A DNA stretch of 64,000 nucleotides from the IMG/VR virus record IMGVR_UViG_3300014204_000110, one strand, 5' to 3'. Numbering within the stretch: the first letter of the stretch is position 1; every line of letters starts with the position of its first letter. The notes below the pieces were generated by a model. That model saw only the letters and a list, made by a program, of their open reading frames with translations. It did not search any database and was not told where the DNA came from. The translations under genes were made by a program, and so were the position numbers. This document shows, in pieces, positions 420-54,043 of this stretch. This stretch comes from a virus. Taxonomy: Duplodnaviria > Caudoviricetes.

Positions 420-685
420 TATAACTCCAAATCTTTGTAACTAATTATTTTAACATCTCTTGCTTTAGCAACATTTATTTTAGTCATTCCAGGATCATTT
501 CCAACTATAAGATAATCTGTATAACTTCTAACTGTAGAATTATTTTTTACATAATATGTTTTATTTAAATATATTTCAAATTCTATTCTTGTATATCCTG
601 GAATAGTTCCTGTTACACAAATATTTTTATATTTAAGATCTATTTTTTGTTTTGGTTCTTGATCTCTACGTAAGTTTATACCCAT
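419..685 (-). CDS. stand-alone BRCT domain protein (NAD-ligase C-terminal type)
   Basis: ICVTGTIPGYTR...TDYLIVGNDPGMTKINVAKARDVKIIS matches LigA BRCT; N-terminus MGINLRRD. Confidence 0.8.
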   Translation of the reverse strand: MGINLRRDQEPKQKIDLKYKNICVTGTIPGYTRIEFEIYLNKTYYVKNNSTVRSYTDYLIVGNDPGMTKINVAKARDVKIISYKDLEL

Positions 686-1095
686 TAATTACCACAGCAT
701 GATTTAGGTTGTTTAAGTAATTCTTCAGTTTTAGTTTTATTAGTTTTAAAATTAACTATTAACTTATTTTTAAGTTCTTTAGCTATCTGACAATATTCAA
801 GTTCAAGTCTTAGTAAATTTTTATTTTCTTCAGAAAAGTCTATTGGACAAGATATATTTAATATATAATCTTGATCTTTAAGTAAAACTATTTCTTCAAA
901 TATATTTACGTTTATATTGTTAATTCTACAGAATGAAATTATATGACCGCCGACACATAGACCGAGTGATGATAATAATAACTCTAGAGGTGTATGAAAA
1001 TATAAATTACTTGATGTCTTTCCTCGTATAGGAACTTTTCCTACTGAAGTAATATTAATAATGTTATTTTTATCTCTCAGATTAACTGTTATCAT
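685..1095 (-). CDS. OsmC/Ohr-like protein
   Basis: TPLELLLSSLGLC ... YCQIAKEL two-Cys OsmC pattern; N-terminus MITVNLRD. Confidence 0.65.
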   Translation of the reverse strand: MITVNLRDKNNIINITSVGKVPIRGKTSSNLYFHTPLELLLSSLGLCVGGHIISFCRINNINVNIFEEIVLLKDQDYILNISCPIDFSEENKNLLRLELEYCQIAKELKNKLIVNFKTNKTKTEELLKQPKSCCGN

Positions 1096-2322: not shown

Positions 2323-3816
2323 TTATCCTATATCATAATTTTCAATAGTTTTAACTAAATTATTTTCACCTTGTTCTACAACTGAAATATAATCAAGTAC
2401 TTTATCACTCCATCCAGCTATAAGATTGACGTTATTACCAATTACTTTTATACTTCCATGCCCAGCTAGATCTATTGAATGAATCCACATGTTTTTATTT
2501 TTAGTTTTGAGCTGAGATGCATATCTTTGAGTATCTGAAGTTCTATAATCATAAGAGCTATCATTATAACATTGCATATCTGAAAATATAATAACTCTAT
2601 CAATAGGTTCATTTAAACTGTTAAGTACTTTAAACGCTTCATGAAGATTAGTACTATGACCTACTCCAGAATGCTCTAGTTTAGAAATATTATCAAATAT
2701 ACTTGCTTTTGTTGAAAGATGTATAATTTTAGCAGTTTCTCCAAATGGAACAGCTATAGAGTTATCACAAAATTTAACTGCTGCTGATGCTAAAAGATTA
2801 CCAATTTGTCTCATTTGAACAATACTATCTTTTGAAATAGTACTATCCATACTACCACTTTCATCAGTTATAATAGCAGTAGTTCCAGATAATTTAGGAA
2901 GATTTTCAAATGAAATCAATAGTGCATCTTCAATAGTATCTAGAACTTTTGTACATCTAGTTTTACCAAGAGTTTCAACCATTTTATAAGCAGAGAAAAA
3001 TCTAAATGGAAGTTGTTTAGATTTACGTACTTCTTCTGGATTCTTAAGTATGTTGCATACTTTATCTAGATGAATGTCTGAAATATTATTTTCAAGCATA
3101 TTTTTAAGATTACGTAAAAGCATCATATATCCAGCTTTACTATCTATAATCTCTTCCCATACTTTTTTACTTTGACCTTTTTCTGAAAGTATTGTTTCTC
3201 TTGTTTTAGGAGTTTTAAGACGATCTTCTATAAGACGTTTCCAAAGATCAGCTTGTTCCTGATCTTTAGGTTTTGGTCGACATAAAAGTAATGCGTCTTT
3301 AAGCTTTACAGTGCTTTTAGAGCCTTTGTATCGTGAGAGGCTATATTCATCAAACTTTGGAAATACATCTGCTATACCTCTTCGTAAGCTTCTAGGAATA
3401 GGATTAACTTGTCTTTTACCTAAAGATAGATGATAAGCTAAGATATTAGTAATATCATCAACTCGTTCAATGATTTTACTGATCATTTTACGAACAATTC
3501 TATTACCTTTAGCACCTTTTGCTACTTCTGCGGCAAGTACATGAGATACACTACGCATATGAAATTCATTACGTGCGTAACAAGCAAGTCGTGCTACAAA
3601 TTCAGGATCTTCAGATATAACTCTACGTGCTACTGAAATAAGTTCTGAAGTATTATCTCCATAAAATTTAGGTTCATTAATGAAACTGGTGAGTACTTCT
3701 GTTACGAGTTTTTCTTTATCTTTAAGATCATAAGCGAGTCCACCAGCTTTATTTATTGTTTTTCTAGTAGTAATTGTTGATCTACCAGTACTAACTGCTT
3801 TTGTATTTGCTTTCAT
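2323..3816 (-). CDS. rsr: Ro60/Rsr TROVE-domain RNA-binding protein with C-terminal vWA
   Basis: TINKAGGLAY, EPKFY, YARNEFHMRS, FDEYSLSRY, LLRNLKNM, SKQLPFRFFSAY, DESGSM (MIDAS), IIFSDMQ, IAGWSDKV. Confidence 0.92.
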   Translation of the reverse strand: MKANTKAVSTGRSTITTRKTINKAGGLAYDLKDKEKLVTEVLTSFINEPKFYGDNTSELISVARRVISEDPEFVARLACYARNEFHMRSVSHVLAAEVAKGAKGNRIVRKMISKIIERVDDITNILAYHLSLGKRQVNPIPRSLRRGIADVFPKFDEYSLSRYKGSKSTVKLKDALLLCRPKPKDQEQADLWKRLIEDRLKTPKTRETILSEKGQSKKVWEEIIDSKAGYMMLLRNLKNMLENNISDIHLDKVCNILKNPEEVRKSKQLPFRFFSAYKMVETLGKTRCTKVLDTIEDALLISFENLPKLSGTTAIITDESGSMDSTISKDSIVQMRQIGNLLASAAVKFCDNSIAVPFGETAKIIHLSTKASIFDNISKLEHSGVGHSTNLHEAFKVLNSLNEPIDRVIIFSDMQCYNDSSYDYRTSDTQRYASQLKTKNKNMWIHSIDLAGHGSIKVIGNNVNLIAGWSDKVLDYISVVEQGENNLVKTIENYDIG

Positions 3817-3873
3817 GACACCCTCCGTAAGAGATTATATTTTTAATAAAGGTTAATATATAACCAATATAGG

Positions 3874-4104
3874 TTAATTTATAAACATTAAAATTATCCA
3901 AGTAAATATTGCTAAAGGAATTGATAATTGTCCTATTGCTGGACAGAAACCTATAAGCGAACCTTGCCACCAAACTATAGCATCTGGTTTTCCCATAAAA
4001 TTTAACCAACTATTAATCGTATAAGGCCAACATATTGCTCCAATAATAGCACTTATAAGTAATATAAAAATAAATCCACCACAACTGGTTTTAACTGAAG
4101 CCAT
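3874..4104 (-). CDS. small membrane protein
   Basis: Two or three hydrophobic segments; probable start MASVK after AAGGAG (the longer ORF call overlaps an ncRNA). Confidence 0.6.
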   Translation of the reverse strand: MASVKTSCGGFIFILLISAIIGAICWPYTINSWLNFMGKPDAIVWWQGSLIGFCPAIGQLSIPLAIFTWIILMFIN

Positions 4105-6633: not shown

Positions 6634-6649
6634 AAATGTTCCTTTAAAG

Positions 6650-6723
6650 TGCAGTAAGTAAGATTTGAACTTACGATATTCTGTTTGGAAGACAGACTCC
6701 TTAACCAACTGGGATATTACTGC
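6650..6723 (-). tRNA. tRNA-Gly(UCC)
   Basis: GCAGUAA/UUACUGC acceptor, anticodon arm UCUGU-CUUCCAA-ACAGA, T-loop UUCAAAU. Confidence 0.9.
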
Positions 6724-7025
6724 ATAAAAGTTATAGGTGATTGAAATTCTTTGTTTTCTTTTTTTTCAGGAAGAACTTTAGCTAAAATGAGTTCTCGTTC
6801 AATGACTTCTATAAATATACGATTCCAAGCGCTATCAATAGATAATAAAATAAGTTCATTATTAGCTATAAATATTAATTTTTTATGATAACCTTTTTTT
6901 GTTTTTTCATTATAAATTTCAGTTATATTATTTTTATTTAAAAATTCTGTTAATTCATTATAGTTTATGCTTTTATAATTTTGTTTAAAATCATTATCAA
7001 CTGATAATATACATAATTTTTTCAT
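6717..7025 (-). CDS. hypothetical protein
   Basis: 102 aa ORF. Confidence 0.5.
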   Translation of the reverse strand: MKKLCILSVDNDFKQNYKSINYNELTEFLNKNNITEIYNEKTKKGYHKKLIFIANNELILLSIDSAWNRIFIEVIERELILAKVLPEKKENKEFQSPITFMQ

Positions 7026-7162
7026 ATTTATTCAATCAATTCTTCAAAGAGATCATTAAGATTTTGTTCTTCATTAAAACTTTCAGCACAAGCAGTACAT
7101 AAATCTTCACTATCACATTCATCTGGTTCAATAACGTCACCACAGCAACTACAATACATATA

Positions 7163-7756
7163 TTACTCCTCTAGATCTAATTTCATTTGATCTTTTAAGA
7201 TCTTATTTTGTTTAATATCATAAAGTTCTCTATCTTCATATCGATGTTTTGCTCTCCAACCCATAATTTTAGTACCAATGTCCCAAAGTGCATTGCGTTT
7301 TATATGATGATAAAGTTCTGTTTTACAATAACTATATATTTCTACATAATTCTTTTTTATTATAGGCTTTATATATTGTCTAAGACTTGGAAGTAATCTT
7401 ACTCCAAATATTATATCCGTATCATAATAAAATGATTTATTTGGTTCTTTATAAATTGTAGATTTATGGTCAAAACATGATTTTTGTGAGATACTTAATT
7501 TATCAAATATTTGTTTAGATATTATAAGTTCGGGTTCTTTATAGTCATCTAGAGTTTGTATATAAGTTTCTTTAAAAAGTGGTACAATTTCACAAAGTTC
7601 TTTTCCTAAAGGGTGTTTTTTACCAGTTCGACTGACTGTATATTTAACTACATAACCTTTTTGATTATAAAAATCCTTTTCTCTGTTTTCAGTAGAACTA
7701 TCTTTGAGTATTTTTCTTATCTTTTTATGTTTATAATATTTTTTACTTTTAAACAT
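7163..7756 (-). CDS. hypothetical basic protein
   Basis: 197 aa ORF with GGAG RBS. Confidence 0.65.
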   Translation of the reverse strand: MFKSKKYYKHKKIRKILKDSSTENREKDFYNQKGYVVKYTVSRTGKKHPLGKELCEIVPLFKETYIQTLDDYKEPELIISKQIFDKLSISQKSCFDHKSTIYKEPNKSFYYDTDIIFGVRLLPSLRQYIKPIIKKNYVEIYSYCKTELYHHIKRNALWDIGTKIMGWRAKHRYEDRELYDIKQNKILKDQMKLDLEE

Positions 7757-7773
7757 TATATCTCCAAATAAAC

Positions 7774-7998
7774 TAAATGTAGTTCTTTTATATGTTCAAT
7801 TTCTTTCCAGAGCTGGATAAATGACATTGTAACATTGTTGTCTAACACTTCTATTAATAGCTAATTAATAGTCATTCCAGATGCGCCTTTAACAATATTA
7901 TAAGTTCTACTAAAATCGCGTTATGGGTTTAGGCAGTGTCCCATTAGTATACTATTATAATATTATAACCTAAGTTATATATAAAAGAACTACATTTA
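7774..7998 (-). ncRNA. structured element bounded by a perfect 20-bp inverted repeat
   Basis: taaatgtagttcttttatat (7774-7793) / atataaaagaactacattta (7979-7998); internal hairpins; no ORF. Confidence 0.55.
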
Positions 7999-8000
7999 AG

Positions 8001-8216
8001 TTACCAATTGTATCTTTTATGACAATATATGATTCCAATAGTCATACATATTGATCCAATTATAGTAGAATAAATAGCATTCCAATGCATATTTGTTTCA
8101 ATAGCAAACCCAAGAGCTACTAGAAATGCTGAAACACCAAATATAAAACTAAATAATCCTAAAGAATCTTTAATAAAAGTATAATCTTTTTTAACTAATT
8201 CTTTTTCTTTTAACAT
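8001..8216 (-). CDS. small two-TM membrane protein
   Basis: Two hydrophobic helices. Confidence 0.55.
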   Translation of the reverse strand: MLKEKELVKKDYTFIKDSLGLFSFIFGVSAFLVALGFAIETNMHWNAIYSTIIGSICMTIGIIYCHKRYNW

Positions 8217-8224
8217 AATATCTC

Positions 8225-9343
8225 CTATTCATATGTTCTTATTACAATTCCACGAGCATGACAAGGAATTAAATCTTTCGAAAAATATTGGAATCTTACT
8301 GTCAAAGGTTGACCAATAAGAGAATTAATATTATCTAACCATTCCTTTCTCTTACTACGACTACCTTTTGGTCTAACGTCAAACTCTTTACCTTCTTTAG
8401 TTTTACATCTAAATACAACGGTCCCAATATCATCACCGTCTGCACTTACACCACCAATAATTTCGAATTCATCCTCTAAGAAATCTTTTTTCTTGAGTAA
8501 ATCTATACTACGATGGTTAAATTTATAAAGTCCATGTTTATTTCTGATCATTGATCCTTCAAAACCAAGACTTGTAAATTGTTTATGATATTTTTCAATA
8601 TCTTCCATACATGTAACTTCATATGATGGAACTTCAACTAACTTTCCATATTTTCTAAATCCAAATTCATTTTTTTCTGTAGATTGGTTAAAAAACTCTT
8701 TAATAGTTTTATATCGATCGTCGTAGATTACTTCTTTTTTTGGAATATCAAATATCCAATATTCTAAATTTGGAGTATCTTTATTATATTTTTTACAAGC
8801 AGAAGTGATATCTTGTAATGGAAGACCGTGAAGATAAGCTTCACCATCTCCATTTTCTAATACTTTTAAAAGTTCTTTAGTATCTAGATGTAGATGTTCT
8901 AAAGCAGGATATTCTTTTCCTTTTTTAGATTTAAGTAGTATTTTATTATCTACTTCTTCTGAAGTTAATCTGTTACCATCAAGTTTTGGACTAATATATG
9001 CTGGAAGTACTATTTTATGAGCATATTTAGTTATATTTTGAGCTTTCATTGGTAATGGTACTGTGATATTTATATCTTCAATATCTTCTACATATCCTTC
9101 ATCAAGTTTTTTATTAAGTTTACTTTGAGCTTCATTAAGACCTTGTTGCCAAGGAGTGGTCTCATTACTTTTTCCAATATTGACAGATTTAATTTCTTTA
9201 GAAGATGTAGTTTGTTTACCATCTTGATATCCATGTGTAACTTCTAATGTTACGGTTTCTCCAGTTTTATTTACTTCACATTGCCATATTTTTGTCTTAT
9301 CATTAGAAGCTTTAGCATATATTGGACCAAATTGTTGTTTCAT
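8225..9343 (-). CDS. ATP-dependent DNA ligase
   Basis: SPKLDGNR (motif I), DGE, WIFD, FEGSMIR, LLKKK, OB domain; WGR-like N-terminus. Confidence 0.9.
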   Translation of the reverse strand: MKQQFGPIYAKASNDKTKIWQCEVNKTGETVTLEVTHGYQDGKQTTSSKEIKSVNIGKSNETTPWQQGLNEAQSKLNKKLDEGYVEDIEDINITVPLPMKAQNITKYAHKIVLPAYISPKLDGNRLTSEEVDNKILLKSKKGKEYPALEHLHLDTKELLKVLENGDGEAYLHGLPLQDITSACKKYNKDTPNLEYWIFDIPKKEVIYDDRYKTIKEFFNQSTEKNEFGFRKYGKLVEVPSYEVTCMEDIEKYHKQFTSLGFEGSMIRNKHGLYKFNHRSIDLLKKKDFLEDEFEIIGGVSADGDDIGTVVFRCKTKEGKEFDVRPKGSRSKRKEWLDNINSLIGQPLTVRFQYFSKDLIPCHARGIVIRTYE

Positions 9344-9351
9344 AATTATCC

Positions 9352-10011
9352 TTAATTAGTAAATAAACCTTTACTAAAACTTTCAAGTTTAATATCATCA
9401 TTTGATGTTGTTGATCGTGTACTCATATATCTTACTGAAGCAGTGTTAACATTATTCCACATATCTGTTGTTCCAGTAGAATCGCTAGAATATTTAAGTG
9501 AACTTCCTCCAGCTAAATTTAAAGTATATTTTACTACTGAAAGATCTTGATTAGCTCCGATGTAATTTATTGTCCATCGTTTTGTATCTAGACGTTCAGA
9601 GATCATTTCTGAAATTTGTTTACTGTTATATTCTACTGAACAGTTTTCTGCTCCATCACTTATGATTAAAATAACGTAAGTTGTAAAATCATTATCAATT
9701 ATGCTATTTTTCATTTCATTAAGTAATTTAGCAACACCGTCGTACATTGCTGTTGTACCATTAGGATTATAATCTTTATCTGTAAAATCAACGATGTTAT
9801 TTATAGGTGTAGCATTAAACACTGTAGAAATATTATCTCTACTTGAAAATTTAACAAGGGTAAGTGTGGTTTCAATGTCTGAAAACTTTTTATATTCTTG
9901 TATGTGTTCATTAAGTCCAGAAACCGTTTCTCGTCTGGAACTAGCCATACTACCACTTTCGTCTAGTGCAATGCCTATATGTACTATTTTTTTATCAGCT
10001 CTAAGATTCAT
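9352..10011 (-). CDS. vWA domain protein
   Basis: LDESGSM, PNGTTAMYD, IISDGAENCS, YIGAN; N-terminus MNLRAD. Confidence 0.88.
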   Translation of the reverse strand: MNLRADKKIVHIGIALDESGSMASSRRETVSGLNEHIQEYKKFSDIETTLTLVKFSSRDNISTVFNATPINNIVDFTDKDYNPNGTTAMYDGVAKLLNEMKNSIIDNDFTTYVILIISDGAENCSVEYNSKQISEMISERLDTKRWTINYIGANQDLSVVKYTLNLAGGSSLKYSSDSTGTTDMWNNVNTASVRYMSTRSTTSNDDIKLESFSKGLFTN

Positions 10012-10542
10012 TGTATGTCCTCCAATGTGTTTGTTAATTTATTTGTCATTTCTACTAATTTATTAGAATCATCTATTCTAAGATTAATAGTTTTTTTAAT
10101 GTTCATATATTTTTGAATATCATTTACTTGTTCTTTAATATCTTTAAGTACTTGTTGATTTGTTTGAACATATGAACTTATACAATTTCTAATTTGAGTA
10201 AGATATTCTATATTTATTTCTAATTGTTCAAATTTTCTTATTTTATTAGTTATTTCTTTTGAATAATTAACAGTATTATCTATATTATAACATCTATGAT
10301 CTAGCTCAATTATAACATCTATGATCTAGCTCATTAACATCTATTTTTAAACTTTGTATAGATTCTTGTATTTCTTTGTATTGTTCTTGATTCATATCTA
10401 GTTCTTTTAGTAATAAACTTTCTATGATTTCTGTACATATTGGACAAAATTCATCAGAATTATGTCTATCAAGGATACCTCTAAGTATTGTTTTATCATT
10501 TAGTGATATTCCTGGATGTGATGTTATAATATCTTTATTCAT
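10008..10542 (-). pseudogene. coiled-coil protein split by a 25-bp tandem duplication
   Basis: Removing one repeat copy joins ORF 10306-10542 in frame to an open stretch ending at TGA 10008-10010. Confidence 0.65.
10284..10333. repeat. 25-bp perfect tandem duplication
   Basis: attataacatctatgatctagctca x2. Confidence 0.95.
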
Positions 10543-10790
10543 TTTAAGTTCTCTAATGCGCATTTAATATTATCTAGATCATATAAAATGCCGTCAATCT
10601 TTTCTTTATTTAAGGCTGGTTCTTCATGTATGTCATAATCAAATTTAAGTTCTTGATTAAGTAATGCATCAATAATATCAGAGGCAATTGGTCCAAATTC
10701 ATCAGTATTATATTTAGATAAGATATTATATAATATATTTTTATTTTCAAGAGTTATTTGATTATTACATGATATGTATGATTTATTCAT
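10539..10790 (-). CDS. hypothetical protein, paralog of downstream gene
   Basis: ITLENKNILYNILSKYNTDEFGPIASDIIDALL vs ISLNDKTILRGILDRHNSDEFCPICTEIIESLL. Confidence 0.65.
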   Translation of the reverse strand: MNKSYISCNNQITLENKNILYNILSKYNTDEFGPIASDIIDALLNQELKFDYDIHEEPALNKEKIDGILYDLDNIKCALENLK

Positions 10791-10805
10791 ATAAATCCTT
10801 TATAA

Positions 10806-10891
10806 TGCGGAAGGCGAGATTTGAACTCGCATGAAGCAATTGCTTCCTAAGATTTTAAGTCTTATTTGTAAACCAATTCCAACACAACCGC
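10806..10891 (-). tRNA. tRNA-Leu(UAA)
   Basis: Anticodon arm UAAGA-CUUAAAA-UCUUA, long variable arm, T-arm GCGAG-UUCAAAU-CUCGC; two U.U mismatches in acceptor. Confidence 0.82.
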
Positions 10892-10897
10892 ATAAAA

Positions 10898-11200
10898 TTA
10901 TTTAAATATTATTCCAGTAGATTTTTCTTCTTCTTTTTTATCAAAATTATAAGTTTCTACATATTTTCTATTAGGATCAGTACCATTAGGAAATGTTTTA
11001 GTACTAGTAATGTTTATAGGAAATTCTTCAACAATTTCTTCAATTACTTTTATTTTAACTATTTTAACGTGTTCATCTAGATAATAACTACAAACATGTC
11101 TACTTCCATAACTAGCTTTACCTAGAGAAGTATAAAAATCTTGTTTACCAATAGAATTTCCATCTTTATTAATTATTCTATAAGTTATATATTCTTTCAT
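10898..11200 (-). CDS. hypothetical protein
   Basis: ORF, probable start MKEYI. Confidence 0.55.
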   Translation of the reverse strand: MKEYITYRIINKDGNSIGKQDFYTSLGKASYGSRHVCSYYLDEHVKIVKIKVIEEIVEEFPINITSTKTFPNGTDPNRKYVETYNFDKKEEEKSTGIIFK

Positions 11201-11750
11201 ATTAATTATAGTTAATTTCTGCAAATTTTATTGGTTTTGTAGATTTATGTTTTACATCAATACGTCGTTTAGCTAGACCACCAACCATGAGTTCATGTCC
11301 ACCAATGAATTGATGAACATCATGCATCAGTTTTTGTAGGTCTTCTTGTTTTCCAATGAGATCGAATTTTGTTGTTTTTTTGTACAGGATTACTTTTTTG
11401 CTTTTTATTTCTTTCATTTAAAACCTCCAGTTTTAGGTAATTAGATATTAAAAATTGTCTTGTTACTATGTATCTTACTGTTGTATTTATTTTACGAACT
11501 AAAAGTTTATTTATTTTTATAAAAGTGATTATAACATTATCTACTTTATTAGTTTTATTTACTAAGACATCACCAACTTTTAGTTTCATATAATGTCCTT
11601 GTTAAATTATTTATTCTTCTTGATAGGTTGTATCTTTCTTAGGTTTTTCTAGTTTATTTTGTTTTCGAAGTCTTCGAGATCTAGAAATAGGATCTTCGTC
11701 TTCTTCATTTAAAAGAAGATCCAATTCTTCTGGAGAAACCTTTGGCATAC

Positions 11751-12464
11751 CTAACCTTTCTGTTGAAACATTTTACGTTTAAATGCACTTCTGTGACATT
11801 CGCAAAATTGTGGATATACAGATTGTCTTGAGTCATAAGTAATTAAAAAAGTATTAGAACATCTATTATTTAATTTATTTAAAGCATGGCATCGTATTTT
11901 AAGGCTTTGACCATTATGCAATCTTTTTTTATATTTAATTGATAGTATGATATTTTTACCATCAGGATCTGATAAAACAGATCTTGGAATACTTTTATTA
12001 TATAATTGTCGAGCTTCAATACATCTGATATCATCACAATATTTTTTTGTACCAATACCCATAAAAGTATTTATACATCCTACAAACTTACATATTTTAA
12101 GTCTTTTTTGATTTTTTGTAGGCCTTATATGTATTGGTGGATATCCACGTAGATTTAATATTTTTCCAGATTTATTTCTGTATTTTTCGAGATATATATT
12201 ATCGATTTCAAATTCTCCTGATAAAAGTGCATTTATACGTTCAAGATGTTTATTACATACTTCATAACCTTGAATAGATATTCCATCATGCTTAAGTTTT
12301 CCAGTTATACAAAAATATGCTTGTGCTGGTTCATCACAAAACATACAAGTTTTACTTGTTATATCTAAACTATTTCCTCTTACAACTTGAACAACACATT
12401 CCATTTTGTTCCTCAAATATCTTTCCGTAAGTATCTTCCCAATATTTGCGATATTTTGCTGCAA
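11751..12464 (-). CDS. Cys-rich putative zinc-binding protein
   Basis: CMFC, C..H, CKFVGC, CDDIRC, C..C..FCECH. Confidence 0.6.
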   Translation of the reverse strand: MQQNIANIGKILTERYLRNKMECVVQVVRGNSLDITSKTCMFCDEPAQAYFCITGKLKHDGISIQGYEVCNKHLERINALLSGEFEIDNIYLEKYRNKSGKILNLRGYPPIHIRPTKNQKRLKICKFVGCINTFMGIGTKKYCDDIRCIEARQLYNKSIPRSVLSDPDGKNIILSIKYKKRLHNGQSLKIRCHALNKLNNRCSNTFLITYDSRQSVYPQFCECHRSAFKRKMFQQKG

Positions 12465-12648
12465 ATTTTTCTATCCATTCACAGCATGCTTGATCCTGAA
12501 GATCATGTCCACATTTTTCACTTTCAATCCATTTATGAATTTCTATTTCTTTTTTTTGATCTTCTAGAAACTTTTTAAACTTTGCGTCATTAAGTAACTT
12601 ATGTTTTAAAGTTTTACTTTTTTTATAGTTTTTTACCAACATACTCAC
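12370..12648 (-). CDS. conserved hypothetical protein (HKW.ESEK.G.D motif, DUF4032-like)
   Basis: EIEIHKWIESEKCGHDL...EWIEKFAAKYR. Confidence 0.55.
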   Translation of the reverse strand: MSMLVKNYKKSKTLKHKLLNDAKFKKFLEDQKKEIEIHKWIESEKCGHDLQDQACCEWIEKFAAKYRKYWEDTYGKIFEEQNGMCCSSCKRK

Positions 12649-13077
12649 CTCATGGTTTTAAAACTATTGTTTCGTTGTTATATTTGAATATAGCACAATA
12701 TTTAACTGATGGTCTTAGCATTTCTAATACTGGAAAATCAAATATTGTAAGTTCTTTAGGTTTTTTATTACAACCTATTCTTATATCATCTTTATATAAA
12801 ATTATTGTCATATTTATCCTTAATCGTAAATTATTATTTTAATTGGAATGTCATTTTTATAAATTATTTCACATATACATTTATATTTATACTCAAGTAA
12901 AAAGTTTTTGTCTTTACATTTTTCTATAAATTCGTTATAATTAAATATTTGTTTCATAAATATCCATATATTAATATAAGAAAGGAAAGAGCACTAACTT
13001 ACCTAGGTTTTGTTTTTTTGACGTTCAGTTCCCATTACTGACTTGTAGTGTTTTTGTTTTAATCCTATATTATATTA

Positions 13078-13926
13078 TTATTTTAAATAGTTATCTGTAG
13101 TATCTATTTTAACATTATATTTAGCTAGAAAGCTATGAAACTTTTTCTTAAGTTCAGGTACTGCTCCTACAGCAGCTGTTCCATCACTTAGAAATACCAT
13201 CTTTTTAGCAATCTGTTGAGCAATAGCATCATCTCCTTGAGATATCTGAAGAATAAAATCAACGAAACTATTCATAAGACAATAATCTTCTGCAAGACCA
13301 GCCCAAGCGAGTTCATCTAGATTGTTAAGAGAATTAATAAGAAACATATTTACATCAGTAGATGGATCACTTGCATCTGGTACTTCAGCTTTAAATACAG
13401 AAAAATGTTCAGCAAATATATTAGATCCTTTTGTTGTCTTATTTATTGGACGATTTTTAAGATCTTCCCATTCACATAAAGCTTTATATAAATTAGCTTG
13501 AATAGACATACCATCTGTTCCAATAAGACAATGTTCTGTCCATATTGTATGTTCAATGCGTTCAAGACCAAGCTTTTCACGTTCGTTATTTCTAACTGCT
13601 AGGTCTTTGATATACTTCTGTTGTCTACTTTGCCATGCTGGATTAGAAGCTCTCCAGATTGCTGTAGGACCTATTATATCGCTTTCTTTCATTTGAGTGA
13701 TGAATGGATCAGGATTTTTTCCTTGAGCGTTAATCCACATCCTAGGATGTCCTATATGATGTCTATGGTGTGCGTCTAGAGTGATATCGATACTAAATAA
13801 ATCTTTCTTTACTCTCTTAATCATATCTGCAACTCGATCAAGAGCGTCATTACCACCAGTTACAGCTAGTTTACCACCTTCACAGAAATCTACTTGAGGA
13901 TCAATAACAATAAGTCCTACTTTCAT
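13078..13926 (-). CDS. pncA: nicotinamidase (isochorismatase family)
   Basis: VIDPQVDFCEGGKLAV, TLDAH...H, WTEHC, TKG, AGLAEDYC. Confidence 0.85.
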   Translation of the reverse strand: MKVGLIVIDPQVDFCEGGKLAVTGGNDALDRVADMIKRVKKDLFSIDITLDAHHRHHIGHPRMWINAQGKNPDPFITQMKESDIIGPTAIWRASNPAWQSRQQKYIKDLAVRNNEREKLGLERIEHTIWTEHCLIGTDGMSIQANLYKALCEWEDLKNRPINKTTKGSNIFAEHFSVFKAEVPDASDPSTDVNMFLINSLNNLDELAWAGLAEDYCLMNSFVDFILQISQGDDAIAQQIAKKMVFLSDGTAAVGAVPELKKKFHSFLAKYNVKIDTTDNYLK

Positions 13927-13929
13927 ATT

Positions 13930-14406
13930 TTACTCCTTAAGTTTATAGGTTAAATTAAAAGTATCTTTTTCAATACGATAAATATCATCAACAGTATCTG
14001 GAACTTTGCAAATATAATCTCCAAAATTACATATCATTTCTTCATTCCAAGGAGCTAAAAAAGTAATAGATTCTCCAATATATTCAAAAGCATCAGTTTC
14101 ACCTTTTGGGATTACTATAAGCCATATATTATTGTTGTATGTGATTTGTGCTTTAGTATTTATATATCTATTATTAAAAACTTTTTCTGTTATTAAATAT
14201 GTTTCGTTTTTACCATTAACTGTAATATTTTGAATAACACAATTAAATTCATTATTAGATATATTAGTTGTTTCTATTTTATTATCTAGAACTGAAACTA
14301 TTAATTCATTAGGTAATGCTTTTCGATATATAAATTTTCCAGATTTAGCATACCTTTTTGTTTGATTAGAGTTAAATAAATTAATTAATTCAGTTTTAGA
14401 TAACAT
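13930..14406 (-). CDS. PGDYG-like protein
   Basis: APWNEEM...GDYI...DIYRIEKDTF..TY. Confidence 0.55.
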   Translation of the reverse strand: MLSKTELINLFNSNQTKRYAKSGKFIYRKALPNELIVSVLDNKIETTNISNNEFNCVIQNITVNGKNETYLITEKVFNNRYINTKAQITYNNNIWLIVIPKGETDAFEYIGESITFLAPWNEEMICNFGDYICKVPDTVDDIYRIEKDTFNLTYKLKE

Positions 14407-14407
14407 G

Positions 14408-14812
14408 TTAAACTCCTATAGTTTTTTGTTTATACCAATTAAATTGAATTGAAGTTTCTTTTTTATGACAATTAGAACACATAATTTTACATTTAGATAT
14501 TTCTTTTTTTATTGTATCTAAACTCATATTTAACATGTGTGATATTACATATTTTTTATCTCTAAGATGATGAAATTCTAGACATCTTATATCTTTTTCA
14601 CCACATTTACATGGATTTTCTAAAAGATATTGAATTAAGAAATTCTGATTATGTTCAACTGTTTTAATTAATGATATTTTTCTTAATTTTTTAACAATAG
14701 GATTCAAACGTTTAATTCTATATTCTTCATTATAACACGTTTTACATTTTGCTGATCTACTATTAAATTCATCTTTAAATTTCCAGTCATTACATTTTTT
14801 ACATAATTTCAT
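14408..14812 (-). CDS. HNH endonuclease
   Basis: CKKC, LEFHHLRDK, EISKC.IMCSNCH; paralog of 4919-5323. Confidence 0.85.
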   Translation of the reverse strand: MKLCKKCNDWKFKDEFNSRSAKCKTCYNEEYRIKRLNPIVKKLRKISLIKTVEHNQNFLIQYLLENPCKCGEKDIRCLEFHHLRDKKYVISHMLNMSLDTIKKEISKCKIMCSNCHKKETSIQFNWYKQKTIGV

Positions 14813-14814
14813 GG

Positions 14815-15258
14815 TTATATATCATTTGAAGTTAATAATCCACTACATAAGAGATCTACTAGACGCGAATTTAAGGCATCACGTTCTAATTTATAACAAT
14901 CATCACATAATGTTTGTATCCAATCAAGATCTTTTCTTAATTTCCCAGATTTTCCATCATTTTCACATAGTGTATAAGATAATTGTTCAAATTGATTAAG
15001 TTGCCAGAATATTTTATTAAATATATCTTCCCATTCTTCTTTGGATAAATTTTCTTTTAATTTATCATAATTTAGATTTATTCTTAATCCACCTAATTTT
15101 TCTTTTATTTGAAATATTTCGATAAGTTTTTTTGTATCAATATCTGATAAGAAAGATAAAGTTAGATATATTAAACTATTCCATCCAGAACCGCATTCAA
15201 ATTTAAAATTATCTAGAAACATATATTTGTATTTATCTATAATTTCTTTTTCTGTCAT
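14815..15258 (-). CDS. conserved phage hypothetical protein
   Basis: FECGSGW, QIKEKLGGLR, W..TLCDDC. Confidence 0.7.
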   Translation of the reverse strand: MTEKEIIDKYKYMFLDNFKFECGSGWNSLIYLTLSFLSDIDTKKLIEIFQIKEKLGGLRINLNYDKLKENLSKEEWEDIFNKIFWQLNQFEQLSYTLCENDGKSGKLRKDLDWIQTLCDDCYKLERDALNSRLVDLLCSGLLTSNDI

Positions 15259-15575
15259 TAATCTTTCCTTAAATTTATATTTTTATATTTTGATATTATA
15301 TGATTATTTAAAAAAACTATATGAGCTTCTCCTCTATTCCAATCTCTATAAGATTCACTTATTAGTTTATATGAATATTTTCCAGTTAAAGATTTAAGTA
15401 TATTATCATCTATTGATTCTAAATTTTTTATAGTTGCTGTTCTTTCAGAAAATCTATTTCCATCAAGTAATGATATTAATTTTAATTCAAAAAAATTTAT
15501 CTGAGATAACATATAATAATTATAAAATGTATCTATTTCAAAAATATTTCCTATTTTATACATATTATTTTCCAA
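15258..15575 (-). CDS. hypothetical protein
   Basis: 105 aa ORF ending in NINLRKD. Confidence 0.55.
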   Translation of the reverse strand: MENNMYKIGNIFEIDTFYNYYMLSQINFFELKLISLLDGNRFSERTATIKNLESIDDNILKSLTGKYSYKLISESYRDWNRGEAHIVFLNNHIISKYKNINLRKD

Positions 15576-15758
15576 ATATTTTTCTTATTAATGCTATAAT
15601 AATATGAACGCTTCCAAAAAACAATATCATAATATTTAGAATTATTAATTTATATATATTTATACAAAGTTTATTTATAAAATTTCCAATATTACTACCT
15701 AGATTGTCACAAAATTCAACTGAACGATCAAATTTAGCTTTATCAGAATTAGTAAACA

Positions 15759-16049
15759 TTACTTTTCCTTTGGATAGTTATGAGTTCCTGGAGTAAATTT
15801 TGGTATTTTAGAAGTATCACCAAGTACACGAACGTAATCTCTTGTTATATCAAAAGATATTATAAGATCAAACTTTTTACCTTTTCTACTTTTATATTCT
15901 ACATCAATCCAATAACCTTTAAAAGTTCCTGTTTCTGACCATTGTTTAGTTATAACAATACGATCAGGATCTTGAGTTTTTCCTTCTTTTAGATTATTAC
16001 CAATTACTTTATAAACGTATTTTGTACATTCTGGTATTGTAAGTTTCAT
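15759..16049 (-). CDS. hypothetical protein
   Basis: 96 aa ORF. Confidence 0.55.
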   Translation of the reverse strand: MKLTIPECTKYVYKVIGNNLKEGKTQDPDRIVITKQWSETGTFKGYWIDVEYKSRKGKKFDLIISFDITRDYVRVLGDTSKIPKFTPGTHNYPKEK

Positions 16050-16062
16050 AAGATTTTCTATA

Positions 16063-16135
16063 ACTCCTGTAATGGATTTGAACCATTGATGATAGTTTTG
16101 CAGACTATAGACTTAGGCCACTTGTCTAACAGGAG
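16063..16135 (-). tRNA. tRNA-Cys(GCA)
   Basis: CUCCUGU/ACAGGAG, AUAGU-CUGCAAA-ACUAU, U discriminator. Confidence 0.92.
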
Positions 16136-16243
16136 ATGTTAAATATTTAGTAAAACGTAGCTTACTCAAGGCTACTGGCTTAACTTATATTTATATATCT
16201 ATAAATATCATGTATGCTTATGTACATCATATAGAGTATTTTA

Positions 16244-16666
16244 CTAAATATTATATTCTGAGATTGCTGGAATTTTGGTATTTTTCATAAATGACATAGT
16301 AACTCCATTTGATACTGGTCTTGTAGATTGAACTTTTGCTTCAATAAATGTACATACTTTTACTGGACTTGAAAGTTGAAACATTTCAGCACTTTTTGCT
16401 ATTACACTATCAAATGAAGAACAAATAGATCTTGGAAGATATTCTTTAATTTCAAATGGTTTGAAATATTTAATATCAATTGTATTAAGAGCATCTGTTT
16501 TACGTTTAGATGAGTCTCTACCAGTTTTACGACAGAAGTTATCATTTAAATGTGTAATTGAAAATCCTACCAGAAGTCTGTCATCTGGAGTTTTTTTGAT
16601 ACAATAACTATGAGCCAATGTATCTTTATTATCTTCTCTTACATGAAAATACAGTTCATCTTTCAT
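16244..16666 (-). CDS. hypothetical protein
   Basis: 140 aa ORF, D.FCRKTGR motif, AAGGAG RBS. Confidence 0.65.
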   Translation of the reverse strand: MKDELYFHVREDNKDTLAHSYCIKKTPDDRLLVGFSITHLNDNFCRKTGRDSSKRKTDALNTIDIKYFKPFEIKEYLPRSICSSFDSVIAKSAEMFQLSSPVKVCTFIEAKVQSTRPVSNGVTMSFMKNTKIPAISEYNI

Positions 16667-17076
16667 TTTGTCTCCTTTTGAGTATTAGTTAATATGTTTA
16701 AATCTTGTGTACTTGCTGTTATAATACTAGAATTTATTAACTGCTTTAATCTAGCATGATTATATGTTCTATCTATTGCTTGTTTACTATCTTCTTTTTT
16801 AATTATATTATTATCAATAATAACATAGTTATATTTAATTATGTATATATTTCTAATTGTATCATTTATTTTAAATCCTAATGGAAGAATACAAGCTATA
16901 GCTATAAATAAACTTGCTACTCCAGATACTAACCATTTTGTAAGTTTATAATAATATAATTCTTCACCTTCAAGTTGTTTAGCTACTTTAAGTTTTTCAA
17001 GTTCAAGTATTTTATCTTCTGAAAGGTATTTATATGCATTTTTATCTTCTTTATTATGTCTAAGATTTAAGTTCAT
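16663..17076 (-). CDS. single-TM membrane protein (MNLNLR N-terminus)
   Basis: Hydrophobic WLVSGVASLFIAIACILPLGF. Confidence 0.6.
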   Translation of the reverse strand: MNLNLRHNKEDKNAYKYLSEDKILELEKLKVAKQLEGEELYYYKLTKWLVSGVASLFIAIACILPLGFKINDTIRNIYIIKYNYVIIDNNIIKKEDSKQAIDRTYNHARLKQLINSSIITASTQDLNILTNTQKETK

Positions 17077-17585
17077 AAAAGCTCAATTGGTTTAAAGATT
17101 GTATTAGTTTTAAAAGTTTTTATAAACTCAGTTTTTATTGTAAAAGTATAACCTTTTCCAATGCAACCAAAAAGACCATAACTTTTCCAATCACAAATTC
17201 CAGAATTAGTTTTAGCTTTAAGTTTTGTATTACATTCATATGGATTTGTACTATGTCCTCCACAAAGTGGACATACAAACTTACCACTTGGAAATTTAAG
17301 TTTAAAATCTTCAAGAGTTTCAAATATTGCTATATTATCTATTCTTGGAAAGTTAGCTCTTTGATAATAATTTAAAGACCAATATGTTCGGTTACTTTCA
17401 AGTGCATCTAGAATAATATTTTTATCTATTCCTGTATGATGACTATAATGAGATATTAAACCATTAACGAATTTTATTAATTTTAAAGATTCTTTTTGTT
17501 CGTAAAATTGTACTTTATGATATTTTAAATTTGAACGAAAAGCATCTTTTCTTATTTGACTTAAAAGTTCTTTTGTTGTTTTCAT
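17073..17585 (-). CDS. conserved phage Zn-binding protein
   Basis: [35 protein letters not shown]. Confidence 0.7.
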
Positions 17586-18256
17586 AATGTTATAAATTTT
17601 GGTATAAAACCACCTTGAGTACAACCAGGAACTGGAATAAGATTATCACCTTTAACGTCTACGTTGTTTAACTTAGACATATTTTGATACCAAGTTTTTT
17701 TATATTCTTCTGATATTTTACCAAGTTCAACTAGAATATGATACCCACCACGAGTTTGAAGAACATTAAGACAATCTTTATTAATACAATCAAGTTTTAT
17801 ATCTTCAAGTTTAATGTTATCAAAATCGAAATCTATAAAGATTTTACGACTACAAGCTTTATGTATTTCACTTAAAACTTCTTGTTGTGGATTATATCCA
17901 CCATAAGGTTTAGAAATAAGCTCTGCAAGCTTTACTAGGCTTTTCTGAGCAGCCTTCTCTAGACTACGAGGGTTTGGATTGATATACAATACAAGAGCTT
18001 CTTGAGGTATTATGTTATGTTTCTGAAAGTATCGTCCTTTAGGTATCTCAAGCTGAGATATCTTTTCATATAAAAATTCTTTTGTAGAAGTGAATCTTTT
18101 AAGTTGAGATTTATCACTTTTTACATAAGAAACTGTTTGACAATACTTTTTACGTGCAAAGAGACAACAATAAAAGACTTCTCCATGCTGTAACTCTGGA
18201 AGCCAGTCTATGAAATCTTTAAAAAGTGGTTCATCTAGAATAATTTTGTAATTCAT
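17582..18256 (-). CDS. putative AEP primase-polymerase-like protein
   Basis: IFIDFDFD (DxD) and TRGGYH motifs; start MNYKI at 18256. Confidence 0.5.
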
Positions 18257-18280
18257 AATATCCTCAAAAAAATTAAAAAT

Positions 18281-18313
18281 AAAAATGGGTAAGACCATTG
18301 CTGATCTTACCCA
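18281..18313 (-). terminator. intrinsic terminator
   Basis: GGGUAAGAUC-AGCAAU-GGUCUUACCC followed by U-run. Confidence 0.75.
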
Positions 18314-18824
18314 CACCGCGACAGAACACATTCTATGGATCAATCACTGTACTGGATTTCTACAGTTTATTATAGGATTAGGCCCTTACCTGGAATCATC
18401 GTATTTTGACCAGTTATCTTCCTAACTTTAGTTTATACCTTTATAGCAACCATTACAACTACATACGATCTATTGTATTATCCACTATAAAAACATAAAC
18501 AACCTATTGTCCTGTGAAAGGTCATTCTCTATAAATTTTACCATTTTTATCATACCAAGTATATAAAGTACTTGATCTAAATAAATGAGTTAAGAAATCA
18601 TTATCATCTACTAAACCAAGTATAAATTTAGTAGTTATGTATTTTCCAGTATATGGATCATGTATTTTGTTTACCATAAACGCATTATACTTTAATTTTT
18701 TACCAATGTATATTGGTATTTTACTTCTAGAGATAAACTTCTTTTTAAGTCGGTTCATTCTTATAGGAAACATTAACCATTTGATAAATTTATTCATTAT
18801 TTTTACCTTTATTAGTTTAAATAA

Positions 18825-18904
18825 TAGGAGATAAAGGAATCGAACCTTTTTCGCATTTTCACGCCTTATAAGAGCGTCGGAGATTACCAACCTCCACATC
18901 TCCT
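18825..18904 (-). tRNA. tRNA-Ile(UAU)
   Basis: AGGAGAU/AUCUCCU, D-arm GGAG/CUCC, anticodon arm ACGCU-CUUAUAA-GGCGU, T-arm AAAGG-UUCGAUU-CCUUU. Confidence 0.75.
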
Positions 18905-18931
18905 TTAAAATCAATTAGTTATATTAATTTA

Positions 18932-19016
18932 CAGAAGGTATAGGATTTGAACCTATGGAAGATTACTCTCCGCTACGTTAGCAGTGTAGTGCCTTAAACC
19001 TCTCGGCCAACCTTCT
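18932..19016 (-). tRNA. tRNA-Ser(GCU)
   Basis: AGAAGGU/ACCUUCU, CUACA-CUGCUAA-CGUAG, long variable arm, G discriminator. Confidence 0.92.
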
Positions 19017-19211
19017 ATTTAAATATCTTTTTAATTACTTCTTTATTTTTAAATGACTTACATTTATAACAACTTTCTTTTGTATCTAATAATGGAGAAG
19101 CTTCTTTAATCACAAGAGATAAAAGAATATTAAGGCAATCATCACTTAAGTTTTTATATACTGAACGTTTCCATCTAGAAAGTATGTTTTGTTCTAACGT
19201 TTTTACGTTCA

Positions 19212-34589: not shown

Positions 34590-35211
34590 AATTATTTAAT
34601 TATTTTTTGAAGTATTATATTATTAGTTTTCATAGAATTTATTAGATTATTTGATTTTAATAATATTTCATCTTTAGATTTAACTACTGTTGGACAAAAA
34701 TCACAAACACATATATGATCATGAATATGTTTAACTTCTTTTAATGATATTCTTACGGCTAAATCTGGTCCTACACCAGAATATATTATATTTTCAAGTG
34801 TATGTATATTTAATGCATTATCTTTAAATTTCCATTGTAATTTATTTATTTGATAATCTAATTGTGGTATTTCTTTAAAGAATACTTCAAAATTAAATCT
34901 ATGCATAATATTTCCTATTATTTTAAGTTTCTGTAAGTTCAGCAATTCTTTTAAATATATGACTTATATTATCGCATATACCATTGAGTTGTCTTTTAAA
35001 TTCAGGATCATCTGGAAGATGTAATTGGCGTTTTAAACTTCCATCAAGATCTCCTACTGAATCAAGTAAAAGTTTATTTATCTGTTCAGTATAACTATCT
35101 TTGTCATATGCTATTTTAGGAGTCATTTCTGGATTAGTATAACAAAGTATTGCTCTTATAGTTGCAGCTGTTGTATAAATAGTTTTCATAATTTACCTTT
35201 TTTAGAAAATA

Positions 35212-35440
35212 TAATATAATTATAACGTGTTGTTACACCAAAGAAACTTACCCATTGGGTGGAAGTCTTTAACTTCACTTACTCCTATTTTACCAACAGC
35301 ACATCATCTATATATACCTTGAATAATTTTTATGTATTATGAATTACCCATTAGATATTTGTAGACATATCGCACTAGTTGGTAGTTCGTCTCACTCATT
35401 AAAGATGGCTACTTCTAAGCCTACTATTATAATTATATTA
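35212..35440 (-). ncRNA. 23S rRNA H43/H44 (GTPase centre)-like RNA, copy 2
   Basis: 14-bp closing stem; GUAGGCUUAGAAGUAGCCAUCUUUAAUGAG ... UUUGGUGUAACAACAC. Confidence 0.65.
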
Positions 35441-35877
35441 AGATACTAATCTCATCGAGATCCCATCGACAGCATCGCTGCAGGATTGTCCTTGTTTGAT
35501 AACCCAATGTAAAAGATCGGATTAGATATGCATAATTTTAAATAGAATATACTCTTATTGCCACGTATGATATTACATATCCCGTAAAGAGAAGGTACAT
35601 TCTTCTTGTATAGAGTGTGCTGAAGCCATAACAATGGTTACATAACTCCACTATATTCTATTAAAATATAATAGCACGACTTATACGGCTGATAGATTTA
35701 TCACAATTAAGTGGCCAGACGGATAGCCTGGTTATTTTCTTATCGATGTAAGGATTAATTGTCTAACTATTTTTTCCGCGTTTGCCTGTCGTGCATGTAA
35801 ATATACAATAGTTCAGAATTTCACTGTAAACCTTACGTTTCAATAAAGACTATAACTGTTATTGTATATTTATTTTT

Positions 35878-36462
35878 TTAGTTATCAAATACTTGTTCAG
35901 CGGTCATTCCAGATACCTTACTTTCTGAAACATCTGCAACAACAGTAGTTCTTTTTCGTTTATCTGAAGCATCTGCAGCTCTTGCTAATGCTCCAATTGC
36001 ACCTGCAACTTTACTATTTGTACTATCATATGCTGGTTTAGAATCTAGTTCTTCACCAGCTATATTTAAAGATTCTATAACAGCGTTACAAATACCTTTA
36101 TTAGTAATGTTTTTAAATTGTTTTGTTCCATTCTTTTCATTAAGAAAAGAATTAATTGAAATAAATTTGTTTTTATTTGGTTGCTTAATTTCTCTTGATT
36201 GTATTGTAAGAGGACCCATTATATGACTTAGATCAGCTGTTGCAAAATCTCCATCTATTTGTACATTATCTGCTCTGAATATAATTGTTTCTCCAAAACC
36301 AATAATTCTTACATCATTACCATTCTTATTTGTGCTGAGATCTCCAATCCAACTTCTTAATTGGCTTGCTACAACATATTTATGGTCATCTGTAAGAAGT
36401 CCAGTAACTAAACTAATGTTACCAAGACCATCGATCATTTCAACACCTTTAACTTTGAACAT
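35878..36462 (-). CDS. hypothetical protein
   Basis: ORF; probable start MFKVKG after GGAGG. Confidence 0.65.
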   Translation of the reverse strand: MFKVKGVEMIDGLGNISLVTGLLTDDHKYVVASQLRSWIGDLSTNKNGNDVRIIGFGETIIFRADNVQIDGDFATADLSHIMGPLTIQSREIKQPNKNKFISINSFLNEKNGTKQFKNITNKGICNAVIESLNIAGEELDSKPAYDSTNSKVAGAIGALARAADASDKRKRTTVVADVSESKVSGMTAEQVFDN

Positions 36463-52569: not shown

Positions 52570-53490
52570 GACATACTCCTTTGTTTATGGTTATTAATCA
52601 ATGAAACTTAAATTAGCGATTACTACTATAGCTATACATACTACAGCTATTACTAACCTCAATGTACCAGCATGTACACTAAGCTTACTACATCTAGATA
52701 CAAGATTAGATTGTATATACATATCTAATCCTTTCTATTGTTGATTGTTATTAATAAGTACTAGTTAACAATACCACTATCACTAGCAAGCGTGCCTTGT
52801 ACATCAAAGTATGATGCAATAAGCATATACGTTGCTACTGCTTTACTACGATTAAGACAACTAATACGATCACTAAGCTTATGATCTTTTTCAACAAAGA
52901 CCATACTATCAATTAATGTAACAGTAAACATAAAACCTCCTAGAAAAGTGTGTAAGTTATTGTTTTGTATAAAGTTACCCAGTGAGCTCTTATCTTCTGT
53001 AAAGTAATAATATAATACTAATAACACTCTAGGTACTATCGAAAAACATCCCTAATATCATAATCTCAATTCTCAAATAATTTTTTACACTAAACTGTAT
53101 ATTAAGCATTAACTATAATATTTAAATCCTAAAATAATTTTTCATCTATTTAAGCAATATCTAAATCCTCCAAAAAATTTTATCTGAAACCTCTTGATAG
53201 AAATTATACCTGATCTGATATAATCTTAGCTTTAAACAGTACTTTTATACCCTTTCTGGTATAAAAACGTAAAATCGAATTTTCAAAAAAAATATATCTG
53301 AATCGACCTCGCAATGGTCCTTTTCTATAACCCTAAACATATCAATAAGTTATAAGATATCTTTGTCTGAAAAGTATATATTATTTCAGACAAGAAGTGC
53401 ATAGTATTGCCTATTTATATGTATTTTGTGTTAAAACTGTTATAAAGCTACTAAAAGTGTTATATACTGCACCTTATGTGTTAAAACAAT

Positions 53491-53519
53491 TTGACATCCT
53501 AGATGTAAAGAAGTATATT
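53491..53519 (+). promoter_or_regulatory. sigma70-type promoter
   Basis: TTGACA-17 nt-TATATT followed by AGGAGG and ATG 53537. Confidence 0.8.
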
Positions 53520-53536
53520 ACTAATAGGAGGTAAGT

Positions 53537-53851
53537 ATGAAATATTGTAGTAATTGTAAGTATCTTTCTAAGTATATTCGTGATGAAATTATTGATTATA
53601 GATATATAGATGGAAGTATAGTAGAGTCTGGAAATAAAGTATGTCTATGTGATCCTAAAAGAGAAGATTATAATAATTGGGAATATGAGTGTGTAACTAA
53701 GGTTTTAACTGTTTATGATCCTAGAAAGCTTAATGTTAAGAATGATTGCCAGTGTTATCGAGAGAGATGGATATATAGAATTATAGCGTTTCTTAGAGGA
53801 TGTAAGTATTATCATGTTAATGGTGGATTAAAACATGAACGAGTTAAATAA
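53537..53851 (+). CDS. Cys-rich hypothetical protein
   Basis: First gene of plus-strand arm; CSNC..C..N..NDCQCY. Confidence 0.65.
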   Translation: MKYCSNCKYLSKYIRDEIIDYRYIDGSIVESGNKVCLCDPKREDYNNWEYECVTKVLTVYDPRKLNVKNDCQCYRERWIYRIIAFLRGCKYYHVNGGLKHERVK

Positions 53852-54043
53852 GTTAGTTATACTTATATTTGCTTTGTATGTGATTGGTGATACTATCAGG
53901 ATAATTGATCATAAGGATCGCTTTGTAATATTAAATGTGTTTAATACAGATACTGATAGTTGTTATGTTATGCTTGGTAATCTAGAGCATAAGTTAATAA
54001 GATATGAGCGTTGTTATAAACTTAGAAAGACTTTAGATAAGTA

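Follow-up and report, generated by a model that had tools for sequence, protein, structure and literature searches.

A conserved structured phage RNA that reproduces the GTPase-associated centre of 23S rRNA

The GTPase-associated centre (GAC) of bacterial 23S rRNA consists of the top of helix H42 together with H43 and H44 (E. coli positions 1051-1108, the 58-nt uL11/thiostrepton fragment). It is a small autonomous folding element, and binding of uL11 needs its tertiary fold (PMC6239185), in which the stacked triples C1072/(C1092-G1099) and G1071/(G1091-C1100) dock the H43 loop on H44 (PMC2952862, PMC8614978). A variant with A1061, more stable in Mg2+, was used in the crystal structure of the isolated GAC fragment (PMC6239185). 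L10 contacts chiefly the backbone of upper H42 and the junction loops and is thought to need the conserved H42 core (PMC1635324). RNA mimicry by phages is also known, and the pseudo-ToxI RNA of phage PhiTE uses it to evade a host system (PMC3475682). Here we describe a phage RNA which, by comparison with its relatives, is shown to belong to a conserved structured family that reproduces the GAC, tertiary core included.

The RNA lies in a 64,000-nt stretch of phage DNA (the window), where 229 nt of non-coding sequence on the minus strand (35440-35212) bring two ends together into a self-closed copy of the 23S GAC. The initial annotation had proposed two 23S-like halves on the minus strand, separated by an insert of about 150 nt and closed by a stem. 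This layout is borne out, with an insert of 154 nt and a closing stem that is present but measures 15 bp when a terminal U.G is counted, instead of 14. The stem is an H42-like closing helix, P1, whose 5' strand (35426-35440; 15 nt, all A/U) pairs with its complement, the 3' strand, at 35212-35226. Read along the minus strand, P1 is followed by AGUA (35425-35422), the equivalents of A1058-A1061, and by the H43 stem-loop GGCUUAGAAGUAGCC (35421-35407, with A1067 at 35416 and U1072 at 35411), and these two segments (35425-35407) correspond to 23S positions 1058-1076. The junction, from A-UCUUUAAUGAGU through GAGUG, occupies 35406-35393, and the copy of 23S 1058-1090, comprising H43 and the H43/H44 junction, spans 35394-35425. 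After the insert (35392-35239, with CUUUG at its 3' end), whose last four bases form a UUUG linker from the insert helix to H44 (35239-35242), comes the H44 copy GUGUAACAACAC (35227-35238), which is GUGUAACAAC plus AC, equals 23S 1091-1102 and carries U1092:A1099 in place of C:G. Folding and family covariation together define a three-way junction of closing helix, H43 hairpin and H44 hairpin, and an unconstrained fold already yields all three (-56.4 kcal/mol, z -3.4). In a constrained fold the insert domain, including its own closing helix, covers 35243-35393 on the same strand: a 5-bp helix GAGAC/GUUUC (35389-35393 with 35243-35247) encloses a long AU-rich hairpin of about 94 nt (35291-35384), a small hairpin (35261-35278) and a hairpin ACCC-AAU-GGGU (35250-35260) followed by AAG. 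This 3' hairpin-UAAG element is common to about 20 members of the family described below, including the copy in Pseudomonas phage pf16.

The resemblance to 23S rRNA is well above chance. Allowing up to two mismatches, the H43 15-mer occurs once in 64 kb against 0.04 occurrences expected. The core without the insert aligns to Salmonella 23S 1051-1108 with a score of 14, and none of 2,000 shuffles, the control that the initial annotation had called for, comes near it (-8.5 +/- 3.7, best 4). By hand tally from the alignment, 34 of 44 positions from G1059 to C1102 are identical to Salmonella 23S, and three of the ten differences make up a single covarying base triple. The compensatory C:G to U:A change reported for H44 is seen, and the H43-loop base C1072 has become U as well, the whole triple having switched together. 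The mimic is not inside a 23S rRNA gene: its flanks are phage ORFs, and an Rfam scan of the 64-kb window returns no rRNA match and only tRNAs (four), as expected from the earlier statement that no other rRNA sequence adjoins it. The Rfam search proposed at the outset, run on the RNA locus with Rfam 15 at the gathering threshold and at a permissive E<=10, gives no credible family, introns, ribozymes and leaders included, and on 14 other loci of the family it finds tRNA and tmRNA only. Taken as a whole, the initial observation is confirmed by these comparisons.

Relatives of the RNA are numerous in phages. Megablast of its neighbourhood against phages gave no match, and a more distant BLAST search found the same motif in pf16, inside a tRNA cluster, and in jumbo phage CBB. 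A scan of IMG/VR with a 5'-side pattern returned 67 loci, of which three are true 23S and the remainder carry the insert; a scan with a 3'-side pattern, designed so that real 23S cannot match, returned at least 119 loci. Removal of duplicates and two false positives leaves at least 109 distinct members. A covariance model, R1, was built from 27 members with the window sequence among them, and on the window element it scores 96.4 bits (E 1.1e-32) over its full length (model positions 1-193); with default filters it misses this element, which has a long insert, and with filters off it finds it. Across 99 loci R1 recovers 98 matches of 27-146 bits, and a true 23S GAC scores 56.8 bits with the same model. 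Cultured carriers are phages pf16, GAP32, CBB and XacN1, to which BLAST adds Pseudomonas phages UNO-G1W1, Astolliot and Milchi and Aeromonas phage 4_4572. The copy in Xanthomonas phage XacN1 (L285, 695-930; 86 bits) begins 15 nt past a gene annotated as 2'-5' RNA ligase and has different insert borders, GAAUUG for GAGUG and AUUUG for CUUUG. Two phage contigs each hold two copies about 1 kb apart (L146, 1119-1233 and 2174-2362; L078, 3767-4086 and 4725-4942). A match in Paenibacillus phage Pd_22F (L284, ~1489-1554) was rejected as ordinary 23S with 23S flanks, and this 'complete phage genome' record with its 23S stretch reflects either captured host DNA or an assembly artefact.

Among 185,579 bacterial and archaeal genomes scanned with the 3' pattern, about 14 true members were found among the 120 matches listed, all of them on contigs of metagenome-assembled genomes (MAGs) without 23S flanks. 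The other listed matches lack H43 and were discarded; about 280 chance matches are expected from 16 fixed bases in 596 Gb. Since the members among these listed matches all lie on MAG contigs without rRNA flanks and the census is otherwise one of phages, the GAC-like RNA is essentially a phage RNA. We found no description of a phage GAC mimic in the full-text literature, a search to which most subscription journals were out of reach; as far as we could find, the family is undescribed, and it is absent from Rfam 15.

The secondary structure is under selection. In an alignment of 98 sequences, 92.8% of cells form standard pairs against 68.7 +/- 0.7 in shuffles (0 of 500 reach the observed value), and compensatory changes are present on both sides in 20 of 23 pairs. 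The covariation score reaches 0.603, whereas shuffles give 0.150 and sliding the partners by 1-3 columns gives no more than 0.16. These covariation counts, and those that follow, are per sequence and not per evolutionary event. P1 is found in every member with unrelated sequence, and all nine of its modelled pairs show compensatory changes. On the 109 members, anchored counts give GC 63, AU 34 and UA 4 for the pair 1054:1105; GC 89 and AU 13 for 1055:1104; and UA 32, AU 26, GC 19 and CG 2 for 1058:1080. The H43 stem shows occasional clean swaps, to A:U at 1062:1076, to A:U or G:C at 1064:1074 and to A:U at 1065:1073. The earlier interpretation is thus supported in part: a stand-alone H43/H44 mimic selected for its structure has strong support, and the proposal extends to H42, to the tertiary core and to a family of well over 100 phage RNAs, while the uses put forward with it (sequestration of L11/L10, EF-G or EF-Tu, or RelA, or a decoy role against rRNA-attacking toxins) are candidates only.

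In the tertiary core, 102 members have C(C:G) at the triple 1072/(1092:1099) and seven have U(U:A), with none of the 109 mixed. The window RNA is one of the seven, its sequence reading U1072/(U1092:A1099) together with G1071/(G1091:C1100), the latter triple being invariant in the family. The split was not imposed by the searches, given that the first scan left both sides free and the second fixed the 3' side only; the first scan alone yields 41 C(C:G) and seven U(U:A) among 48 unique sequences. The seven U(U:A) members may descend from one single change. The contact U1060:A1088 is invariant in all 82 standard members (82/82), and both bases are present in the window RNA, while 1082:1086 covaries across the family (U:A 47, C:G 21, A:U 7). 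The window junction is of a short type, 13 nt with one base fewer and U at 1086, and its own equivalent of 1082:1086 is not certain; 13 members including the window RNA share this type, which pairs 1057 with 1103 (U1057 with G1103 in the window RNA). Position 1061 varies freely in the family, just as it lacks conservation in rRNA, and the window RNA has A1061.

The insert leaves after GAGU-G and returns with C-UUUG before G1091, in the window as elsewhere; its basal pair, formed by an invariant G and the C of CUUUG, is followed by three covarying pairs. Insert length ranges from 61 to 312 nt (154 in the window), the interior is not conserved overall, and the inserts have no significant similarity to 23S rRNA. 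CUUUG is near-invariant also among members found with the 5' pattern, which did not impose it; neither A1084-G1087 nor C1102/A1103 shows covariation that would support base-pairing to the UUUG linker. Position 1101 is A in the family versus U in 23S. Insert site, UUUG linker and A1101 are common to all members whatever the host, phages of Gammaproteobacteria included, whose host 23S itself reads AAAGAAAG, and because these derived features are shared across hosts they point to one origin of the family and not to repeated capture. In 14 members (among them L073, L098, L108, L121, L122, L127, L139, L144, L147, L150, L155 and L159) the sequence departs from the junction right after A1077, and most of them seem to have an additional hairpin between H43 and the junction, which would make this a second place where insertion is tolerated. 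Two members with inserts of more than 300 nt (L013, element at 3689-4067, minus strand; L122, element at 576-948, plus strand), and no others, contain a hairpin of sarcin-ricin-loop type, AGUACG(A/G)GAGGAA, in the insert. The window insert has no such hairpin. In these two RNAs both parts of the factor-binding site of the ribosome would be copied.

Most members are found close to other small-RNA genes. In 65 of 109 (~60%), tRNA or tmRNA genes lie within 1.5 kb, always on the same strand, and the distance is within 300 nt in 57 and within 40 nt in 45; predicted tmRNA genes adjoin the element in L032 and lie about 3 kb off in L060. The window copy is outside any tRNA array, about 16 kb from the nearest tRNA gene, in a 690-nt stretch without credible ORFs (35190-35877), and ends 22 nt upstream of an 88-aa ORF (34923-35189). 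That ORF has no Pfam or PHROG family, and its neighbours likewise match no ribosomal protein family. Clustering of the ORFs within 6 kb of 48 members found no common protein beyond near-identical phages. Promoter and terminator scans at the window RNA gave background level.

The window itself is a low-GC (~27%) contig of a large phage, and the same DNA stretch was found as DNA contigs in a landfill and a groundwater metagenome, with no RNA sequencing run among the listed sources. Most of its ORFs are without a family; recognizable genes encode a ribonucleotide reductase, a TROVE/Ro60-like protein, a uracil-DNA glycosylase, a deaminase and five scattered tRNAs. The tRNA genes (6649-19017, minus strand; Gly-UCC, Leu-UAA, Cys-GCA, Ile-UAU and Ser-GCU) stand singly between ORFs and form no array, and Ile-UAU (18825-18904) was called by ARAGORN only, not by Rfam. 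The TROVE-domain protein (497 aa; 2323-3816, minus strand) is a PHROG 'RNA-binding protein'; Ro60 proteins are usually accompanied by Y-RNA-like partners. The roughly 440 nt directly upstream of the RNA (35441-35880, minus strand), which the initial annotation listed separately as several stem-closed modules, contain no credible ORFs, fold moderately more stably than shuffles (z -2.6) and have neither an Rfam match nor similarity to any fetched family locus. At ~53000-54000 the sign of the GC skew reverses and the genes pass from the minus to the plus strand, likely marking a boundary between divergent transcription or replication modules.

We favour, with reserve, the reading that the locus is a stable RNA gene of about 229 nt whose product would serve as a free-standing, uL11-binding imitation or decoy of the ribosomal stalk base, off the ribosome. 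For the window RNA we infer expression, processing, binding and host effect alike from sequence. Because the GAC folds autonomously and uL11 reads its fold, the phage RNA should fold in the infected cell and bind host uL11. As sequence and covariation show, an arbitrary helix takes the place of the top of H42, nearly every base of H43, H44 and the junction is retained, along with long-range contacts that hold both hairpins to each other, and a phage-specific domain of about 150 nt projects from the 5' strand of H44. The folded RNA may also bind uL10-bL12; its P1 is without the conserved H42 core. The result would be a free stalk-base copy away from the ribosome, which could draw uL11, stalk proteins or docking factors off ribosomes or absorb something aimed at the GAC. 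One possible effect is depletion of uL11 or stalk proteins from ribosomes with loss of RelA activation, and an alternative would be competition for factors. The missing conserved protein neighbour makes a host partner more likely. A1067 is contacted by thiostrepton, EF-G and the tRNA elbow. It is A in 87 of 109 members and replaced in 22, and the fold-defining nucleotides are essentially fixed, a pattern which suggests selection for the fold, and hence for a fold-reading partner (uL11) over one that needs A1067. The insert and UUUG lie at the position of the 23S 1088-1090 bulge and could change the uL11 surface.

An extension of this decoy reading, which we put forward tentatively, is that a free stalk-base particle of RNA and uL11, perhaps with uL10-bL12, competes for translational GTPases or RelA, or takes an as yet unknown attack on the GAC. 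If true, a large phage would use it to reprogramme or protect host translation, and the members bearing a sarcin-ricin-type hairpin would imitate the whole factor-binding site.

Other functions agree with parts of the evidence. The RNA might be a sacrificial target, a surplus GAC that would spare the ribosomes by drawing a defence enzyme of the host, or a small molecule directed at the GAC (such as a thiopeptide), much as phage tRNAs offset tRNA-cleaving defences. Such a substrate decoy would need a near-exact copy of the rRNA site, members do sit among phage tRNAs and tmRNAs, and the XacN1 RNA follows the gene annotated as 2'-5' RNA ligase. However, no defence system directed at the GAC is known to us, genes for defence or counter-defence do not recur next to the RNA, and 22 of 109 members lack the A at 1067 on which thiopeptide binding centres; many hosts are moreover Gram-negative, and thiopeptides enter Gram-negative cells poorly. 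We consider this explanation unlikely. A similarly low probability attaches to the idea that the variable insert is the active part, as a small RNA or protein-binding arm, and the GAC fold, with or without uL11, only a nuclease-resistant, tRNA-like frame. Inserts of 61-312 nt that differ between phages would suit such a scaffold, as would subfamilies with shared insert motifs, such as the hairpin-UAAG of the window and pf16, and the two members with the sarcin-ricin-type hairpin AGUACG(A/G)GAGGAA. Any stable helix would suffice as a frame, though, and loop and junction bases identical to 23S across more than 100 diverged phages would not be needed; the shortest insert, 61 nt, also offers little room for a separate function.

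For the window copy only, a cis-regulatory leader has to be considered, with the element as 5' UTR of the 88-aa ORF (34923-35189) and control through uL11 binding, in the manner of autoregulatory ribosomal protein leaders. Between the end of the P1 3' strand and the ATG are 22 nt that include an AAAGG ribosome-binding site, and no terminator is predicted after the RNA. P1 does not overlap that ribosome-binding site, though, the ORF is without Pfam or PHROG family and is not a ribosomal protein, and in 45 of 109 members it is a tRNA gene, not an ORF, that comes next within 40 nt. We give the leader a very low probability. That the window RNA is a decaying remnant of host 23S rDNA taken up by the phage, or a match arising by accident in AT-rich sequence, has a negligible probability and is refuted as far as sequence analysis reaches, since, although true 23S pieces do occur in phage records (Paenibacillus phage Pd_22F), the shuffle controls, the compensatory changes and the intact triple oppose it, as do the replacement of H42 by a closing helix, the family-wide insert site and linker, and flanks that are not rRNA.

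Hundreds of large phages, from a range of habitats, carry a GAC-like RNA. If the function of this RNA is as proposed for the uL11-binding decoy, it would be the first free-standing copy of a ribosomal functional centre that we could find encoded by a virus, and a new phage route to interfere with, or shield, host translation. The family provides more than 100 natural variants of one of the best-studied RNA tertiary folds, both base-triple forms included, and with cultured carriers available uL11 recognition and RNA folding can be tested directly on this set. Even with another function, it is a widespread and strongly conserved structured RNA missing from Rfam.

The closest described structure is the bacterial 23S GAC itself, with which the family shares the three-way junction, the H43 and H44 loops and the tertiary contacts U1060:A1088, both triples and, among standard members, 1082:1086. 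The phage RNA differs in lying outside any rRNA gene, in having an arbitrary helix for H42 and a 61-312-nt domain in the 5' strand of H44, and in its invariant UUUG and A1101; further differences of the window RNA are the U(U:A) triple and the loss of one base from the junction. Autoregulatory leaders of ribosomal proteins (L10, L1) are likewise copies of ribosomal protein binding sites outside the ribosome, but they are cis-acting 5' UTRs of cellular ribosomal protein operons and usually loose imitations, whereas the phage RNA is almost exact, tertiary core included, and is a phage gene, mostly among tRNA genes and with no ribosomal protein gene nearby. Phage tRNA arrays and tmRNAs share genomic setting and strand with most GAC-like RNAs, the window copy excepted, and the GAC-like RNA is presumably released from tRNA transcripts by tRNA-processing enzymes; unlike them, it is not tRNA-like in fold, has no Rfam match and copies a piece of rRNA. 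The PhiTE pseudo-ToxI RNA is also a phage non-coding RNA that imitates a host RNA, but what it imitates is the antitoxin RNA of a single defence system, in a single phage lineage, whereas the GAC-like RNA imitates a universal ribosomal site in many lineages. Finally, 4.5S (SRP) RNA contains a decamer identical to 23S 1068-1077 (GAAGCAGCCA of H43) and was once proposed to compete for EF-G. This natural non-ribosomal RNA shares 10 nt of identity within a different fold, whereas the phage RNA copies the whole domain.
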